64,000 nt of DNA from Bdellovibrionota bacterium (GTDB taxonomy: Bacteria; Bdellovibrionota_C; UBA2361; JAAYZI01): NCBI GenBank assembly GCA_050950765.1, contig JBMNIF010000002.1:224001-288000 (forward strand), written 5' to 3'. Below, one piece after another: positions 33,001 to 45,000 of this stretch; position 1 is the first letter of the stretch; the number at the start of each line of letters is the position of its first letter. A program made the position numbers.

Positions 33001-36000
33001 CACCATTTTTCCATTATGTAAAACGCACGCCAATGCTACGGCAACAAGGGTAGAAGTTATAACAGTTCCTAAAAGTAGCCGCGTTATTTTTAATTTTAAG
33101 TTTGCCTTTGAAAAATACCCTTCAAAACCGGAAAATTGAAATTCTTTTCTATAAATAAGGACAAAAAGCGCCAGCACAACCATAGCAACTCTGTCGAAGA
33201 CACGTGAAAAGGGATAGCCAAAATCAGGATAAACACTACAAATCAGAGAAAAAACTGGCGGGGTAAGTAAGGCACTAAAAAAGAAAGTCCCCACGATTAA
33301 AATAAATAACAGTTGAACCATGTAAAAATCCTTTTGTCAGAAATGAAAATAAAAGGGATAAAAAGCTTCTGTTCAAAACAGGGCTTACCTTTTACTGATT
33401 AAGCGCACACCTTCTCCTGTCTCTAAGAATTCAGAGAACCCCTCGCCTATAAAAAGACGCACCAACCCTTTCCGTACCAACGGTCTCAAAATAATGGGAA
33501 AGATACCATTGAAACTTATAGAAAGATTACGACCAGCTTCCAAAGATCATGGTAAGCACCATTATGCTGACGCAAAGAAAAGCTGTTACTTCAAAAACAC
33601 CCATATCAAAATCTTCCTTAAAGTGACATCCAAAGACACCAAAAGTTACTTATAATTGATATTTTCAAATCAGTAAATAGGGCTAGTAGCTAACATATTG
33701 ATTTAATTAAAAAGAGGGTATCAATAGAAACTTTTAAAATCTCTACTGATACCCTTAACCGGGAAAGATAGAAAAAACTGTTACGCTTTAAGCTGCTGCT
33801 TGTGCTTGAACGGCAGCAGATCTGGCAGCACGCACCTGTAAAATTTTTTGTGAGCGGGGTTTTCTACGATGAATCTGACGACATTCCAAGATATCACTAT
33901 CATCTTCACCCTCTAAAGGTTTGAAATTCTCTTGAAATATAAGACACATCTCGCGCTGCAATGTTTCTAAAGCTTTTCTTTTCACCCTTGAAATATGGCA
34001 TCGGCTATAACCGAGAGAAACCGCTATATCGATCAGCCTTCGTCCTTGAATGTAGAGTTGAAAAATTACTTCCTGCTCCAACTTATCTAACTTTTTACAA
34101 ACTGAAGTGCTGACCTTTACTAACTCTTTTTTTAATAAAATCTGATCTGGAGTTTCGTTTTCTTTACCGGAAAGTGACTCAACAGCATCAATGGCATCAA
34201 TGACACCTAATGCTCCTCCATATTTACTACTATTATAAAATCTCTCTTCTTCGTTATTTAAAATCGAAATAATATTTCCGTTAGCTGCACCAGAGATACT
34301 TCTTATCAAATTTCCTCGCAGATGATAGAAAAGAAAAGTTATAAAACAAGCTCCCTTAGCAGGATCGAAGCGTGAAACAGCTTCGCATAAAGATAGATCC
34401 ACCACACTATGAAGTTCATCATCATCTAATCTGGAATGCCATTTTTTAAGTATGCTACGCGCTAACTTACGTGCCTTTAAACGATACTCCAAAACCATTT
34501 TTTTGTTTTCGTGCGTTGTCCTTATTCCACAAAGTCCATTTAAAACAGCAACCTTTTTATTTGTCTTAGCCACACTACTTAAGCGCTCGGCATCAGCCAT
34601 TGTCATCTTCAACTTACAACTTTTGACTTCTGACATTACTTCCCCAACTTGCAGCACAACCACTTAAAAACTATTTTTAATGATCTTCAAGCTGATAAGC
34701 TCTGATTACATCCTCAACGCCTGTCACAACATCAAGGCAATACGCTTGAATCATCAAACGTGAGTTTGATTCCATAATGCGATCACACTCTTGTAATATG
34801 GGCGCAATTTTACTGGCGATCTCTGCTCTTAAAATTTTAGCAATAGGATTCTTAACAGCAGAAGCTTCGGACCCAACAACTTCCAACTCTTCCATACGAC
34901 CCTCACAAAAAAAACCAAACACATCCTCTACTCTGTCAAAATAAAAAGTTCGCTTCATTATTTTTATAAATATTTGCTAACTACCTATAAATAGTTGTTA
35001 TTTTATTGATAATTTTTGCTCCTTTTTGAAGCGTTGTAACATCTACTTTAATTGTTACTAGAATTAGCCAGCTAAGGCTAAGAACAGGTTAGATTATGGG
35101 AAAAGAAGAAGATACGCAGGAAACAGTCCTCTCCATTGAAGAGGCAAATGACTTAATCCTTGAACATCGTGGCTGGGCAGAGAGTATTGCTAAGTCTGTC
35201 GCCCGTTCTTGGAATCTGGATTGGCAGTTAGATGGATTGGATGGTGCTGCTATGGAGGCACTTATTTTTTGTGCACGTAGATTTGATCCTGCTCGGGGTG
35301 TGCCCTTTAAAGGTTATGCTAGAAAACGTATTCATGAAGCAGCGACAGAAGCCTCTCGTCGTTCAAAAGGTTGGCGACGCGGAGGAAATACTTCCGCTCG
35401 CACAGAACGTTTAGCGCGTGAGGTATCCGTAGAGCTCTTTAACATCTTCCCTGAGTTACATGCGGGGCTACTCCCCTATGCTGGAGATGAAGATGCAGAT
35501 CAAGATACTCGCATCGCCTTACAAAGATTATTGATAGGAGCTTCTGTTATCGCCACGAAACAAGGGATTGAAGCAGCCTTGCCGGATGATGCCCTTGATT
35601 TTAAACGCATGATAGAATCGATCTGTTCTATGGAGCCATTACATCAAACGTTAATCTGGAAAGTATATTGGGAAGGATTTTCATTGCGGAGTGTAGCTGG
35701 AGAGTGGGAAACTGATGAACTAAATGTTATCCGTGAACATAAAGTTATTCTGGATTATCTGCAGAAATTTTTTGGCAAGGGGCGGAATACAAAGTGTCCA
35801 AGGATAAGACCTGGATTAAGGGAGGTTGCGGTAAAATTAAAACGACAAGATAATATGGTAGATTTCAGCCAAATAATGACAAAGGAGTAAACCACGATGT
35901 CCAAGAACTCTAAAGATAAAAGCTCAAAAGTAACGGGAATCAAAGCCCCACGTGTCCCCACTGCCATTGAACAACTCAGTGGAGTTTCAAGTGTTGAAAA

Positions 36001-42000: not shown

Positions 42001-45000
42001 CTTGTTGTGAAACGTTTTTCTGTTGTTTCTCTCTTCTTTCAAAACGTTTCTTTTCTTCACTTTCATTTTCTTCATACCTAGCAACGCTCTCTTTTTCAGA
42101 AGCACCTGACCTGCCTTCCTTTCTTGACTGTTGTTCAGATCTTTGTTGCTTATCAGGATTTGAGCTCCTATTATCTCTACGTCGTCTAGCTGAACGGGAC
42201 GTTCTCTCTGGCGTTTGTTGAACCTCTGCCGCTATCTCAGGAATTTCAAATTCAACATCTTCCACAACGCTTTCTTGAGACGACACTACATCTTCAATCT
42301 CTTCAGAGCTATCATCCCCAAGATCTTCAACAGTGACCTCTTCCTCTTCTTCTCCAACATTAAAATCGAAAGGTCCTACAAGCCCCCCTTCTACTTCATT
42401 AACTTCATAATTCACCACTTCTTCAGCACTATCATCCTCAACGGCAGACGCGGTTTCTACAAAACCACTTTCAGGATCTGATCTTACCTCAGAGACAACT
42501 CCACCGTAATCAAATCTGGTTTCAACATCTTCCACCTCTCTCGGTTCAAAATCAGCATATCCTTCGGGTTCTTTTGACTCTTCCTCTTGAGCGCCTGCAA
42601 ATTGAGGTGTTTCATCTTCAGCACCTATCGCTACGATACTATCATCTTCCATCTCCCCTTCTGAATCATCAGGGATTTCAACCTCCAGCTCTTCAATATA
42701 AGCACTAAGGGGATCATCCAACTGCATGGGGTCATCATTACTTACATCAGCCACCTGCTGAGTAGCACTGGCCACTTCATCTTCTCTGATTCGATCTCTG
42801 GTTTGTTCTAATTCTGCATCTCCCGCTGTGGACATCGTACGTTGTCGCACCCTAGCGGAAGGTTTCTGCGCAGGCTCCTCCGGTCGTTCGGAAGCAGAAT
42901 CTAAACTCGCTCCGCACATCCGACAACGAGTTGAGACTGCCGGTATTAAACTTCGACAAGATGGACATCTCACAAAGGTCAACTCATTATTATCTGTAGC
43001 CATAATATCACTCCCTTTTTACTCAAAAAAAAACATACTTATTTAAAATATTGCTCCACATAAAATAAACAATAAGAATATTAACAACGCATTGAGCAGT
43101 ATCATTATAAAAATGAACAACGCTTTTTTCGGCAGCGACAAAGCATTAAAGTACCGCTCCAAATCTTCTATTTTAACGAACCCTCTACCCGTGTTAAGCA
43201 TACTTTCCACCGTGTTTCTTGATACACGCGCACGTTGCATTTGTGGTGGTTGCAGAGAAGTCTCTTCCATAAAGCTTTCTGTTAATCCAACCTGCTTCTT
43301 TGTTTTTTCGACCTTAACTTCATTTTCTACAAAAGCATCTGCCGAACCGTTAGCATTCTTAAACTTCTCTTCCTGTTCTTTATTAAAACAGATCGCCACC
43401 GTTAAATTACCACCGAAGTTTAAAACTTTGGCTTCACCATCAAGCTCTAAAGTATGACCTTTCTTTAAGATACCGCCGTCATAAACGGTTCCGTTAGTGC
43501 TGGAATCTTCGACTGTCGTTATACCTGTCTGACTAAGAGAAACTGTACAGTGCCGCCTTGAAACGTGCGGAGCTCCTAACCACAGATCGCTACTAGGCTC
43601 TCTACCGATAGTGACACTTCCATCAACCGGCAAAACCAAACGTGCTGGTCTAGCCACCTCAGACATCGATAATAAGATCGGGTACCTTTGCAACGATTGT
43701 TGCGGAGCAACTTTTTCCACTTCCTTGTTGATGATTTTTTCCAAACCATCTTGAGAAACTACACCGTATATCGAAGTTTGCCCCCCTAAAAAGATAGGTA
43801 CATTTGGTTCTACATTAACACGCCCTGAGATCTGTTGATTGTGTACAAAAGTTCCGTTTGTTGAACCGAGATCTTCGATCCAAAACCTTCCTTCTTCAAA
43901 ACCTATACGTGCATGCTTGCCCGAGATATCCGCACCATCAAGTCGTACCGCACATTTATTAGAGCGCCCAATATAAGCTGGTTGATCTGGTGAAAAAGAA
44001 ACGACTATCGGAGAGGCTCCTGCTACAACAACAGCTGGGAACTCCGGAGTATCTAAAGCACAAGCCTGCCGCAATATCCGCACTCCAGCACGGTCTGGTG
44101 GTTCTCCTGCTTTTACCGCTAAGTCGGGATCCAATGAAGTCACTGTTAATTGCAGATTAGCAAGTTTTAATGAAGTAGATCCGTTAATCGCTCCATGCGG
44201 TATTTCAGGGATAGCGTTGATGTCGTTTGAATTTACCTTATCTAGCGTTTCAAGCTTGCAACGAAACTTTCTTCCGACACACTTCGTCAAACGGAGTTGA
44301 TAATTAAGATCTTTCATATCTTCTATATCAACGTGTGCTTCTTCAGAAGCACCGATCAAGGCTTGTGGACGACGCACAAGTATCATCATGGTTTGGGATA
44401 AGCCATCTTGAAAAGCTATTTCAAGAGCGAACATGCACGTAATCCTTCAATAGGGTAAAAATCGACCTTAAATCCGTTAACAAACACCTGTTTATATATA
44501 GATAATTTCAACCGCAGAAAAATTCTCTACAGTATTATTAGAATCAAAAAACGGAGTAAGGATCCACTTTTTTTATCGAACACTACTAAAAGAATCTTTA
44601 ATTTTTGTTACACATTAGTGCAAAAATAAGTGAGTCTTATTTCTGTCTTTTAACATCTCAAGACATGCTTAATTGCTAAAGGGATCCTTTAATAGAGATC
44701 TCTTTTGAGTGTATTAGGAGCTAAAAATAACAGATAAATAAATTCTGTTTAATAATTAGCTAGTTATGGAAGAAGATTTTTAGTGTTAGTTATGCACTTC
44801 GCTAAAAACAAACCGCTGTTTTATTACATAAAACACGCTAAAAACTTCTTGCGGTGAACGCTATAATATTTGTTAAGCAATAAGGTTAAACCATGGACAC
44901 ACCAGCAACTATCTTGATTGTCGACGATGATGTAACAGCACTCGACATTGTTGATTACCTCTTTGAAGATAAAGGCTTTGAAGTAGTACGCAGAGCCGAT

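Follow-up and report, generated by a model that had tools for sequence, protein, structure and literature searches.

The window analysed here, 64,000 nucleotides of a Bdellovibrionota bacterium (Bdellovibrionota_C; UBA2361; JAAYZI01; GCA_050950765.1, contig JBMNIF010000002.1, 224,001-288,000, forward strand), contains an operon for basal parts of a T3SS. Which machine do these parts belong to, and what might that machine do? An earlier note had counted this operon and another on contig C1 (C1:16252-21917) as second and third systems beside those at C5 and in a Tad locus. Our data suggest instead that the two operons are halves of two machines, here called system A and system B. C1, C2, C3 and C5 are contig labels, the window lying on C2, and the coordinates of the T3SS genes (33788-44434) are window positions.

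Non-flagellar T3SS parts in the genome

The genome (94% complete) has three FHIPEP genes, namely FlhA (C2:203731) and one SctV each on C1 and C3, together with FliF and two SctJ, three FliP/SctR and, as ATPases, FliI and one further T3SS ATPase. FlhA, FliF, FliG and FliI make up a separate flagellar set, and the T3SS-like operons do not fit the flagellar pattern of an SctV within the FlhA clade accompanied by FliF, full FliG, rod and hook genes. No dedicated T3SS secretin (SctC) was found in the genome; its two secretins (PF00263) stand in a GspD-type and a PilQ-type context, as read from neighbouring sequences, and the operons themselves hold none, as had been claimed. Neither tip, translocon nor gatekeeper was seen in the T3SS loci read.

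Conservation of the T3SS-like parts is far above chance: 63 of 78 genomes of the phylum have at least three FHIPEP matches. Non-flagellar branching was judged from a tree of SctV only, among the core export proteins. In this quick tree with long branches both SctV are placed apart from FlhA, on the non-flagellar side (SH-aLRT 100). SctV-A (C3) and SctV-B (C1) form separate deep clades across the phylum (support 99 and 100), and neither belongs to the Myxococcales-plus-canonical group, itself weakly supported (81), or joins the SctV of the Myxococcales long or short locus. Judged by their sequences, the operons hold parts of non-flagellar T3SS, and they do so order-wide, as the earlier note had it.

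That they are flagellar accessories or decaying relics is a notion suggested by the position of the window operon among flagellar loci and by its truncated, highly diverged gate (gate A). We regard it as very improbable, and largely refuted by the branching of both SctV off from FlhA, by carriers without an FlhA-grade match and by purifying selection. In four genomes of the order that lack an FlhA-grade match there are still two SctV, and G021, which has neither FliG nor an FlhA-grade match, keeps both. No stops occur within the matches, gene order is conserved across families, and dN/dS is at most 0.40 in every pair compared.

The window operon and its export gate

The genes lie where they had been placed, including a SctU that lacks its cytoplasmic domain (Table 1).

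Table 1. T3SS-like genes, sigma factors and adjoining small genes in the window.
Feature	Position	Strand	Basis or remarks
FHA1	43043..44434	-	two FHA domains (Pfam FHA E 1e-29, two stretches); C-terminal hydrophobic anchor
FHA2	41588..43003	-	Pfam FHA E 1e-5 (C-terminal); Zn ribbon E 0.04; acidic disordered middle
SctJ, inner-membrane ring lipoprotein	40738..41598	-	TIGR02544 E 1.6e-21; lipobox LCAC
x76, putative mini SctK/FliG-like linker	40492..40722	-	profile matches
SctQ, C-ring protein	39446..40474	-	FliMN_C E 2.6e-6; TIGR02551 E 0.059
SctR-A, export gate subunit	38678..39313	-	FliP E 4e-32
SctS-A	38423..38662	-	Bac_export_3 E 3e-11
SctT-A, 207 aa, short and diverged	37785..38408	-	position and profile alignment, E 4e-4
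SctU-A, membrane domain only	37146..37772	-	PF01312 positions 3-219 of 335
x85, candidate SctX-like partner of TPR protein	36782..37039	-	
SctY-like TPR chaperone	36324..36815	-	best specific NCBIfam match SctY, E 1.2e-6, below cut-off
x117, small protein	35897..36250	+	co-oriented after sigA; no family
sigA, divergent FliA/WhiG-like sigma-70-family protein	35096..35890	+	strong conservation; fold match
x93, small patchy gene before sigB	34677..34958	-	no family
sigB, sigma-70-family, regions 2 and 4	33788..34663	-	TIGR02937 E 7e-14, above cut-off

FHA1 reads as a SctD-like cytoplasmic module, the periplasmic ring domain being absent from its sequence, and in other orders it lies directly 3' of a SctV-linked kinase-like gene. 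FHA2, which starts with a zinc-ribbon-like stretch and is present in every SctJ-SctQ locus examined, is probably a phospho-signalling adaptor. Direct profile comparison of x76 with FliG and with AscK gave no significant result, and x76 had no match in the PDB; its profile did match the protein that follows SctJ in the Myxococcales long locus (63%, E 7e-5), which matched FliG in turn (65%, E 6e-5), and through this chain x76 may be a mini SctK/FliG-like linker. The SctY-like TPR profile matched the TPR protein after SctU in the same Myxococcales locus (97.6%), with which the window operon shares the U-X-Y order. The predicted complex of x85 and the TPR protein scored 0.84 (best control 0.00), and x85 is probably its SctX-like partner; x85 matched AscX neither by sequence nor by profile.

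The gate itself has lost many of its characteristic elements. SctR-A carries the loops GFYGSG and LGATNI here, without the Q-x-x-P (Q2-belt) loop or the methionine loop, and among 47 A-type SctR rows Q-x-x-P occurs in none and a Met in the loop in four. SctT-A has no family match in Pfam/NCBIfam and aligns with reference SctT/FliR over 158 columns with a gap at the plug; the plug motif occurs in 0/36 SctT-A rows, the plug/lid loop being deleted. The Q1-belt glutamines are mostly lost across SctS-A homologues (column counts, 43 rows), and SctU-A ends where the cytoplasmic linker begins, with no NPTH site (NPxH in 0/47 A-type rows). The acidic/basic (salt-bridge) pair of SctS-A is kept in 43/43 rows, and SctV-A is full length with its conserved cytoplasmic-loop motifs. 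Drift of the M-loop also occurs in working gates, the genome's own FliP having MITL and the Myxococcales proteins MQT/MHM. Despite the lost motifs gate A is under purifying selection, with median dN/dS of 0.03-0.26 for A genes (few pairs).

Roles in the gate are described for the M-gasket, the R-plug and the Q1/Q2 belts in the available parts of PMC8239009 and PMC7943601. In system A, standard threading of unfolded substrates is improbable, as methionine gasket, plug, glutamine belts and switch domain are all missing from its gate. Could the ungated core, sitting under a Tad pilus, instead take up prey cytoplasm as an inward conduit comparable to nanotubes? Flagellar gates without gasket and plug leak small molecules, as excerpts of PMC8239009 report, inward transport through the export apparatus (nanotube cores) has been proposed in the portion of PMC7064499 available, and gate A has lost its gasket/plug parts throughout the rows examined, 47 of SctR and 36 of SctT. 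However, according to the same excerpts of PMC8239009 a leaky pore costs growth, so another seal would be needed and none was identified; nor was an outer-membrane channel found in the genome. We give this conduit only a slim chance.

Proposed division of the parts between two systems

On our best reading system A consists of the window operon and the Tad-linked SctV on C3, derived from one ancestral Tad-T3SS operon; it is synteny that joins them. The C3 part runs CpaE-CpaB-TadABC-SctV-kinase-like gene, and TadA-B-C-SctV-kinase-like gene are adjacent in 10/10 loci of this order. In other orders Tad-SctV-kinase-like-FHA-FHA-SctJ-SctQ is contiguous in 10 of 12 loci (7/9 in one set plus L248, L252 and L358), the remaining two stopping at contig ends. 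The SctV-kinase-like-FHA join is also seen in one genus of this order, g3, in both loci (L024 and L036). The ancestral operon includes the kinase-like gene, a PP2C and three FHA proteins, and is closed by sigA/sigB in other orders. Flp-pilin-like ORFs occur in 6/12 A-type Tad loci; at this genome's C3 Tad locus the stretch from cpaE to the duplicated cpaB shows no pilin. SctI and FliO are absent from the system A loci read. Against this reading, gate A adjoins the C1 operon in one genome (L030), and in family f27 it is retained with no Tad, SctJ or SctQ next to it.

In system A the SctJ/mini-K/SctQ ring and SctRSTU core would make up a base attached to the Tad platform, with x85 and the TPR protein as a SctX/SctY-like pair at SctV. 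The Ser/Thr kinase, PP2C and FHA proteins might turn it on at contact. Alternatively, system A may be no transporter at all, its gate and rings serving as a structural or sensory base of the Tad pilus from which contact is relayed via kinase/FHA and sigA/sigB. The loss of all substrate-contacting elements beside a fully kept SctS salt bridge, the kinase, phosphatase and FHA genes and the terminal sigA/sigB of the ancestral operon, and the want of a linked ATPase in this order all speak for such a base. It remains unlikely in our view, given a full-length SctV-A with its loop motifs, the retained SctX/SctY-like pair, a further L-N pair in most other orders, and the persistence of sigA in f27, where system A is split up. 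We favour a transporting system A, most likely held closed by the Tad machinery and passing cargo to it.

System B, on our best reading, comprises the C1 operon, the C5 gate and SctL-SctN on C3, grouped together because a promoter-like motif is common to all. The content of the C1 operon agrees with its earlier description (FliA-like sigma-SctJ-x-SctQ-g20-SctV-TPR lipoprotein), and the C5 operon reads SctI-SctO/P-FliO-SctRSTU, its SctI matching NCBIfam SctI at E 0.001. The motif GAAACTT-N13-CGAW occurs upstream of the C1 sigma (5/19), g20 (6/17) and SctI (6/16), against 0.14-0.3 in shuffles, hence in just about one third of the training regions. It is found upstream of neither FHA1 (0/30), CpaE (0/19), sigA (0/78) nor sigB (0/73). 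Held-out SctL upstream regions carried it in 13/19 (shuffles 0.36), in SctL regions it was sense in 15/20 and antisense in 0/20, and in other orders it was present in 1/6 SctL regions. In this genome GGAAA-N16-GCGA, a variant picked by eye and post hoc with 18 copies genome-wide, lies 57-97 nt upstream of all four B units, exclusively at spacing 16.

Gate B is intact, with Met in 20/20 rows, Q-x-x-P in 19/20, plug in 14/20 and the SctS glutamines in 19/19. In 19/19 rows its SctU breaks off at the strand preceding the NPTH site (NPxH 0/19), the C-terminal part being a separate small gene, with a GAF/PAS histidine kinase gene between the two halves. The motif is also carried by a CHAP-domain gene (C2:672307; CHAP E 0.0018), which is present in just 4/96 genomes and whose homologues have the motif in one of two testable cases.

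The claim of a single non-flagellar ATPase holds within this order, where 0/58 genomes exceed FliI plus one such ATPase, and fails in other orders, where 14/20 genomes have a third. That single ATPase belongs with system B on the best reading; two g22 genomes have no detected SctN and keep both SctV. If both gates, rings and SctV shared the one SctL/SctN and swapped parts, there would be a single composite machine, as the ATPase count in this order, the encoding of SctI and g20 only with B, the L030 arrangement and a spare SctU-C gene at C3:236785 might suggest. The deep phylum-wide separation of SctV-A from SctV-B, the absence of the B motif upstream of A genes and the third ATPase of other orders argue against it, and we think it quite improbable.

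The sigma factors and the needle-like subunit

A sigma pair had been described as following the window operon. Both genes are there, but they do not continue it, since sigA faces the operon's end and sigA and sigB are divergent. The linkage, put at 2 of 10 loci before, is commoner, with the pair in the same 20-kb locus in 13/20. SigA occurs in 93/96 phylum genomes with a median dN/dS of 0.03; its model (pLDDT 77.7) has WhiG and FliA as best fold matches (E 0.02-0.03). SigB adjoins it in 75/80 loci, and a SctY-like gene is present in 39/80 sigA loci, many of which end at contig ends. The x117 profile gave 93 matches, covering most sigA loci, and that of x93 gave 11 among the loci examined. The upstream regions of sigA and sigB are free of the system B motif, and both are at most putative regulators of either system. 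The FliA-like sigma of C1 matched the sigma of the Myxococcales long locus (profile 99.9%, score 242) above the genome's own FliA (169).

The g20 protein had been put forward as needle or rod. A g20-family match is found in 77/78 phylum genomes, and homologues occur in 'needleless' Myxococcus loci. With mixed g20 profiles the best PDB matches were T3SS needle entries (E 0.001-0.7), and T3SS_needle_F was weakly matched by 5/31 family members, all five from Myxococcales; a phylum-only profile (141 rows) matched no needle protein, and comparison with AscF was not significant. The structure model is poor (pLDDT 67, pTM 0.30) and without fold match. The sequences suggest a filament-type subunit, SctF-like rather than SctI-like because C5 encodes a separate SctI, with its identity as SctF tentative.

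Relation to known systems and possible role

The closest parallel is the Kil (Tad-like) pilus and needleless T3SS* of Myxococcus xanthus (MXAN_2434-2464), as presented in the accessible text of PMC12075869, PMC10433427 and PMC12428579. Shared are T3SS basal parts without a secretin, with SctJ, SctI, SctQ, SctRSTUV, SctL/N, FliO, TPR chaperones and FHA proteins, and a Tad system beside them. The accessory genes of the Myxococcales long locus (FliA-like sigma, x96/x98, TPR lipoprotein, SctU-C, U-X-Y) are present, split between A and B. System B has in common with that locus the FliA-like sigma, x98, TPR lipoprotein, SctI, g20 family, FliO, small SctU-C gene and an FHA-TM gene; system A has the U-X-Y order and the post-SctJ protein. 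Unlike in Kil and T3SS*, system A unites Tad and T3SS genes in a single operon and parts are scattered, neither SctV clade joins the Myxococcales SctV, SctU is never full length (NPxH 0/66 rows versus 8/8 in Myxococcales), gate A lacks loops that Myxococcales SctR keep, and most carriers also have a flagellum. TadA is only 28% identical to its best Myxococcales homologues; FHA1 has no close one, its best Myxococcales matches covering the FHA domain alone.

The Myxococcales short locus, T3SS(2) (MXAN_5643-5654; PMC3459982 and PMC10196010, each in part), is likewise a second secretin-less system without its own ATPase, ordered g20-like, SctI, SctJ, small post-J protein, SctQ, FliO, SctRSTUV. It differs in that it forms one compact locus whose gate loops are intact and whose SctU is complete, has no Tad link and no sigma, and has a SctV of another clade. 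With a canonical injectisome (Ysc family, Aeromonas locus) the systems share homologous SctJ, Q, R, S, T, U, V, N, L and I, a SctY-like chaperone, a probable SctX analogue and a candidate SctF analogue. By comparison SctC, a periplasmic SctD domain, tip, translocon and gatekeeper were not found in these loci, which do have FliO and a FliA-like sigma, and SctU is truncated in A and split in B. A flagellar export apparatus can have a separate FlhB C-terminal paralogue, FlhX/HP1575, likewise a small gene for just the FlhB/SctU part after the cleavage site, whereas in system B the small SctU-C gene is the sole source of that part.

In this uncultured lineage gene content, synteny, gate motif loss, motif distribution and purifying selection were observed; what we infer is assembly, transport direction, reading of the motif by a sigma, substrates and predation. 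By analogy with Myxococcus Kil/T3SS*, two separate secretin-less T3SS machines may act with Tad pili at prey contact, a reading to which we give roughly even chances. System B would be a conventional exporter forming one regulon, probably read by the C1 FliA-like sigma; it would assemble a short rod or filament from SctI and the SctF-like g20 and export small cargo, for example the CHAP-domain protein. More speculatively, and rather doubtfully, A could serve the Tad pilus as a base plate or a permanently ungated channel, a pilus/T3SS hybrid possibly taking up prey contents, and B, controlled by its own sigma and like the Myxococcus systems taken to be needleless, would build a filament from an overlooked SctF family, g20 and its paralogues, for delivering wall-lytic enzymes to prey bacteria. 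With system A in a pilus operon without the usual seal and gate of its channel, and B an intact exporter with its own promoter-like motif and a needle-like subunit, the organism may have the Myxococcus prey-killing pair in genetically fused form.

A 2025 review (PMC12428579), in the sections available, holds that the pairing of Tad pilus and T3SS* seems confined to Cystobacterineae. A phylum-level lineage with Tad and T3SS fused in a single operon points to a physical link between the two and supplies candidates for the linking parts. Myxococcales T3SS loci are described as without SctF in the excerpted text of PMC3459982, and the several g20 homologues in those loci are directly testable in a model organism. 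Gate A is a natural, selected variant without the elements that the consulted part of PMC8239009 describes as universal T3SS pore seals, and so offers a test of what a gate does without them. With systems A and B the flagellum-to-injectisome transition gains two further deep lineages that have no secretin.

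Gene content of systems A and B

Gene reading and family scans recovered every gene that the earlier note had placed in the window and on contig C1 of this genome (G000), and its tally of two SctV (C1 and C3), two SctJ (C1 and C2) and two export gates (C2 and C5) is borne out. These parts very probably partition into two systems. System A comprises the window operon (FHA1-FHA2-SctJ-x76-SctQ-SctRSTU-x85-SctY-like TPR; its SctRSTU is gate A) and a Tad-linked SctV on C3, and system B comprises the C1 operon (FliA-like sigma-SctJ-x-SctQ-g20-SctV-TPR lipoprotein), SctI, FliO and SctRSTU on C5 and a C3 SctL-SctN pair. 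That all of them build one shared machine seems distinctly improbable; the one arrangement in which gate A adjoins the C1 operon was met at locus L030, an exception.

The C1 order running from sigma and SctJ to SctV, for which conservation had been claimed, is kept in 20/20 loci, and the C5 gate in 19/19 (L293, fetched as B, turned out A-type and was dropped). Likewise, no T3SS secretin was found, the two secretins of G000 having type II secretion genes and type IVa pilus genes, respectively, as neighbours. The two sigma-like genes said to follow the C2 operon are both there, but sigA is encoded on the other strand, pointing toward the operon end, and is divergent from sigB. Flagellar FlhA, FlhB, FliP, FliF, FliG, FliH and FliI are present. 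A 207-aa gene at the SctT position had no family match; a profile built from 36 homologues could be aligned with reference SctT/FliR across 158 columns (E 4e-4).

Among relatives, which are metagenome bins in a phylum sample covering one class, at least three FHIPEP matches occur in 63/78 genomes (those at least 90% complete), sigA in 93/96 and a g20-family match in 77/78. G019, G021, G032 and G070 have two SctV and no FlhA-grade match. Single-protein scans of genome contigs with SctJ and MreB gave nothing useful.

Around the best SctR-A matches (20 loci), SctJ-SctQ stands upstream in 17, is split off in 2 and meets a contig edge in 1, and sigA lies within the same locus in 13. In this order TadABC, SctV and the kinase stand together in 10/10 loci, the remaining system A genes being relocated; in two loci of genus g3 FHA1 comes directly after the Tad-linked SctV and the kinase-like gene beside it. 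That join is the rule in other orders (7/9 loci, two cut by contig ends; also L248, L252 and L358), and at L358 it continues into SctRSTU, x85, the TPR gene and the sigma pair. Exceptions are L252, with no recognisable gate following SctQ, and family f27, with gate A and no Tad, SctJ or SctQ. Upstream of the A-type Tad genes lie PP2C, FHA, Ser/Thr kinase, CpaE and CpaB, with Flp-like ORFs in 6/12 loci.

SctU-B ends at the strand preceding the NPTH site (19/19 rows). A GAF/PAS histidine kinase gene follows it in 17/19 loci of this order and 5/5 of other orders, and a separate SctU-C gene comes after the kinase gene in 16/19 and 4/5, respectively. At L289 the two halves adjoin without the kinase. 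B-type SctQ in L267-L272 (other orders) is split into FliM-like and FliN-like genes, as in flagella.

Of the small system A proteins, x85 was predicted to form a complex with the TPR protein (score 0.84; best control 0.00), the runs sharing at least 90% of contacts with partner pLDDT of at least 78. The mark used is reached by 116/157 solved complexes and 2/215 mismatched pairs, counts that are only rough with the alignments used, and the pass may mirror likeness to solved complexes if the two are SctX/SctY relatives. x85 had no significant match to AscX, to a Klebsiella protein in the X position or to its Myxococcales counterpart X, and neither x85 nor x76 profiles had a relevant PDB match. 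By profile comparison x76 resembles the Myxococcales post-SctJ protein, which is FliG-like; direct comparison of x76 with FliG or AscK gave no significant match, and the same holds for x117, encoded after sigA, when compared with x98.

Features of genome G000 with their positions
Feature	Position	Remarks
SctU-B split at autocleavage site, 1074-aa GAF/PAS histidine kinase between halves	G000:C5:49844-54214	phylum-wide
Second stand-alone SctU/FlhB C-terminal gene	G000:C3:236785-237069	no T3SS operon nearby
fliF followed directly by fliH	window 58929-60581	fliG on other contig (G000:C1:5218)
cpaB tandem duplicate	G000:C3:609562-611492	upstream sequences identical; no Flp pilin gene where relatives have it
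Second Tad locus (CpaE-like, Flp pilin, CpaB, TadA, TadB, TadC)	G000:C1:143940-149650	no adjacent secretin
sigA-sigB interval	window 34677-35096	across L040-L119, GCCGAT 38/74 and TGCTTC 44/74
Lone g20 paralogue	C2:669294	E 4e-4
CHAP-domain gene	C2:672307	bears B motif; domain match E 0.0018, under the cut-off
Stretch with this SctF-like paralogue and, 2.7 kb on, the CHAP-domain gene with B motif	G000:C2:669294-672927	L348
T-rich GGAAA-N16-GCGA upstream of 188-aa protein	G000:C2:172262-172828	no Pfam match
T-rich GGAAA-N16-GCGA upstream of IS200-like transposase gene	C1:418239-419291	

Gating elements of the two export gates

The available text of PMC8239009 describes a pore sealed by the SctR methionine loop, the SctT plug and an SctS salt bridge, and that of PMC7943601 describes Q1 and Q2 belts formed by SctS and SctR glutamines. 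Judged by sequence, gate A has lost its gating parts. Q-x-x-P in SctR is found in 0/47 A-type and 19/20 B-type proteins, and the loop methionine in 4/47 and 20/20, although loop drift is seen too in FliP of the phylum and in Myxococcales SctR. The SctT plug motif is present in 0/36 A, 14/20 B and 7/8 reference sequences. All three glutamines are kept in 19/19 SctS-B, whereas SctS-A has one of them in 8/43 and the remaining two rank below the three commonest residues of their columns; the acidic and basic bridge positions of SctS-A are kept in 43/43. The window SctU matches the membrane domain only, in agreement with the earlier note, and SctU-A proteins end at the linker (NPxH 0/47).

The system A structural genes have median dN/dS values of 0.06-0.26 (2-16 pairs each; for SctR-B and SctT-B no pair could be used), low enough that the changes in gate A are not decay. 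A relic is highly improbable. System A might instead be a scaffold or sensor, which we regard as unlikely, or an inward conduit, which we consider less likely still.

A shared upstream motif and the ATPase

GAAACTT and CGAT were the top words upstream of three non-homologous sets, the C1 sigma, g20 and C5 SctI genes. The pattern built from these sets matches 5/19, 6/17 and 6/16 of their regions, respectively (shuffles 0.14-0.3), and is absent upstream of other genes (0/30 FHA1, 0/19 CpaE, 0/5 PP2C, 0/78 sigA, 0/73 sigB). Held-out SctL upstream regions of this order, leaving out L382, matched in 13/19 cases (shuffle 0.36), and a looser pattern matched 15/20 SctL regions in sense and 0/20 in antisense. 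In other orders 1/6 SctL regions matched, and 0/6 before the further ATPase.

A weight-matrix scan of G000 with the order-level motif missed its four B units because G000 uses a variant. This, GGAAA-N16-GCGA, was read by eye; it stands 57-97 nt before all four B units (other spacings, 0/4) and is absent from the window operon region and the C3 Tad locus, and G000 holds 18 copies (shuffles 13-28). The -10-like half resembles the FliA element, which makes the FliA-like sigma of C1 the factor most likely to read the motif. No motif was enriched upstream of FHA1 or CpaE, and a sigma-54 pattern occurred at most once per upstream set. The conserved words between sigA and sigB suggest a sigma cascade; as a paired pattern they were found in 0/74. 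The CHAP gene occurs in 4/96 genomes, its homologues having the motif in G036 and not in G060.

The motif evidence, including the SctL regions, places the single ATPase with system B. The earlier note's one non-flagellar ATPase holds for G000, with one SctL-SctN pair on C3, and for this order, where 0/58 genomes exceed two ATPase matches (FliI and one other), but not for other orders, where 14/20 genomes have three, the third within a separate L-N pair. In G021 and G032 (genus g22; 97% and 94% complete) neither SctN nor FliI was found although the two SctV and the two gates persist; the type III systems of these two genomes are possibly ATPase-free.

The g20 family, known systems and a model

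The earlier note had offered g20, a 96-aa C1 product, as needle or rod. The needle part gains from a weak SctF likeness, while the rod reading, g20 as SctI, was set aside since SctI is encoded by a gene of its own and the comparison of g20 with AscI was not significant. We think it probable that g20 is homologous to SctF. The family has 682 representatives (E up to 0.001), and in other orders a second member immediately follows g20 (7/7 loci). Myxococcales loci from four genomes also hold homologues (profile probabilities 95-97%): the short locus, or T3SS(2), has one ahead of SctI, and the long locus (T3SS*) has one before sigma and, in 3/4, two or three 72-75-aa copies.

Profiles to which Myxococcales rows contribute find a 43-aa chain in PDB 7y6c (E 0.001; entry labelled needle co-chaperone), which we take to be the needle subunit, and also a needle fusion (8fvu) and MxiH. 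A 141-row phylum-only profile had no needle protein among its PDB matches. With the second-member profile, 7y6c_F (0.079) and a PrgI fusion (0.57) came behind designed repeat proteins. T3SS_needle_F was matched by 5/31 members (best E 0.023). The g20 model is a weak helix-loop-helix, for which a fold search gave no match. Row set A9 omitted the g20 row of L266 as well as three rows whose over-called starts were long, and A10 left out 9/150 matches. Myxococcales loci described without SctF (L234-L247; G041-G043, G045) hold several small g20/SctF-like proteins, a part of them in tandem and next to LcrH-like chaperones, and 2/7 upstream regions of such genes match the B pattern.

A needle-less T3SS has been proposed for Bradymonabacteria (available text of PMC11509652), and the available text of PMC13200544 does not mention T3SS. 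For known systems we used the available texts of PMC12075869, PMC10433427, PMC3459982, PMC10196010, PMC12248157, PMC12428579, PMC10469934 and PMC7064499. In the openly available main texts searched we found no description of systems A or B, loci of which may be listed in the supplements of the FliO paper PMC12248157, and no SctF described in Myxococcus.

In a quick SctV tree with FlhA as root (45/61 sequences), A (support 99) and B (100) each form a clade that spans the phylum. Both fall on the non-flagellar side (100) and outside the weakly supported group (81) that joins Myxococcales to canonical SctV; on this test neither belongs to a Myxococcales T3SS clade. The pair also differs from an injectisome in secretin and SctU. 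Of the accessory genes in the Myxococcales long locus, some occur in A and others in B, and we infer that the pair may work like Kil, the Tad-like pilus of Myxococcus, with T3SS*, while being a member of neither Myxococcales clade.

The most likely reading, to which we give an even chance, is a Myxococcus-like model where a contact-activated system A feeds the Tad machinery and system B exports lytic cargo. Contact would be sensed via the Tad pilus and a kinase/FHA relay, activating A, whose open core would be closed by the Tad machinery that it feeds. B would export lytic cargo along an SctI/g20 filament, and the two together would resemble the two-step kill-then-lyse scheme of Myxococcus.
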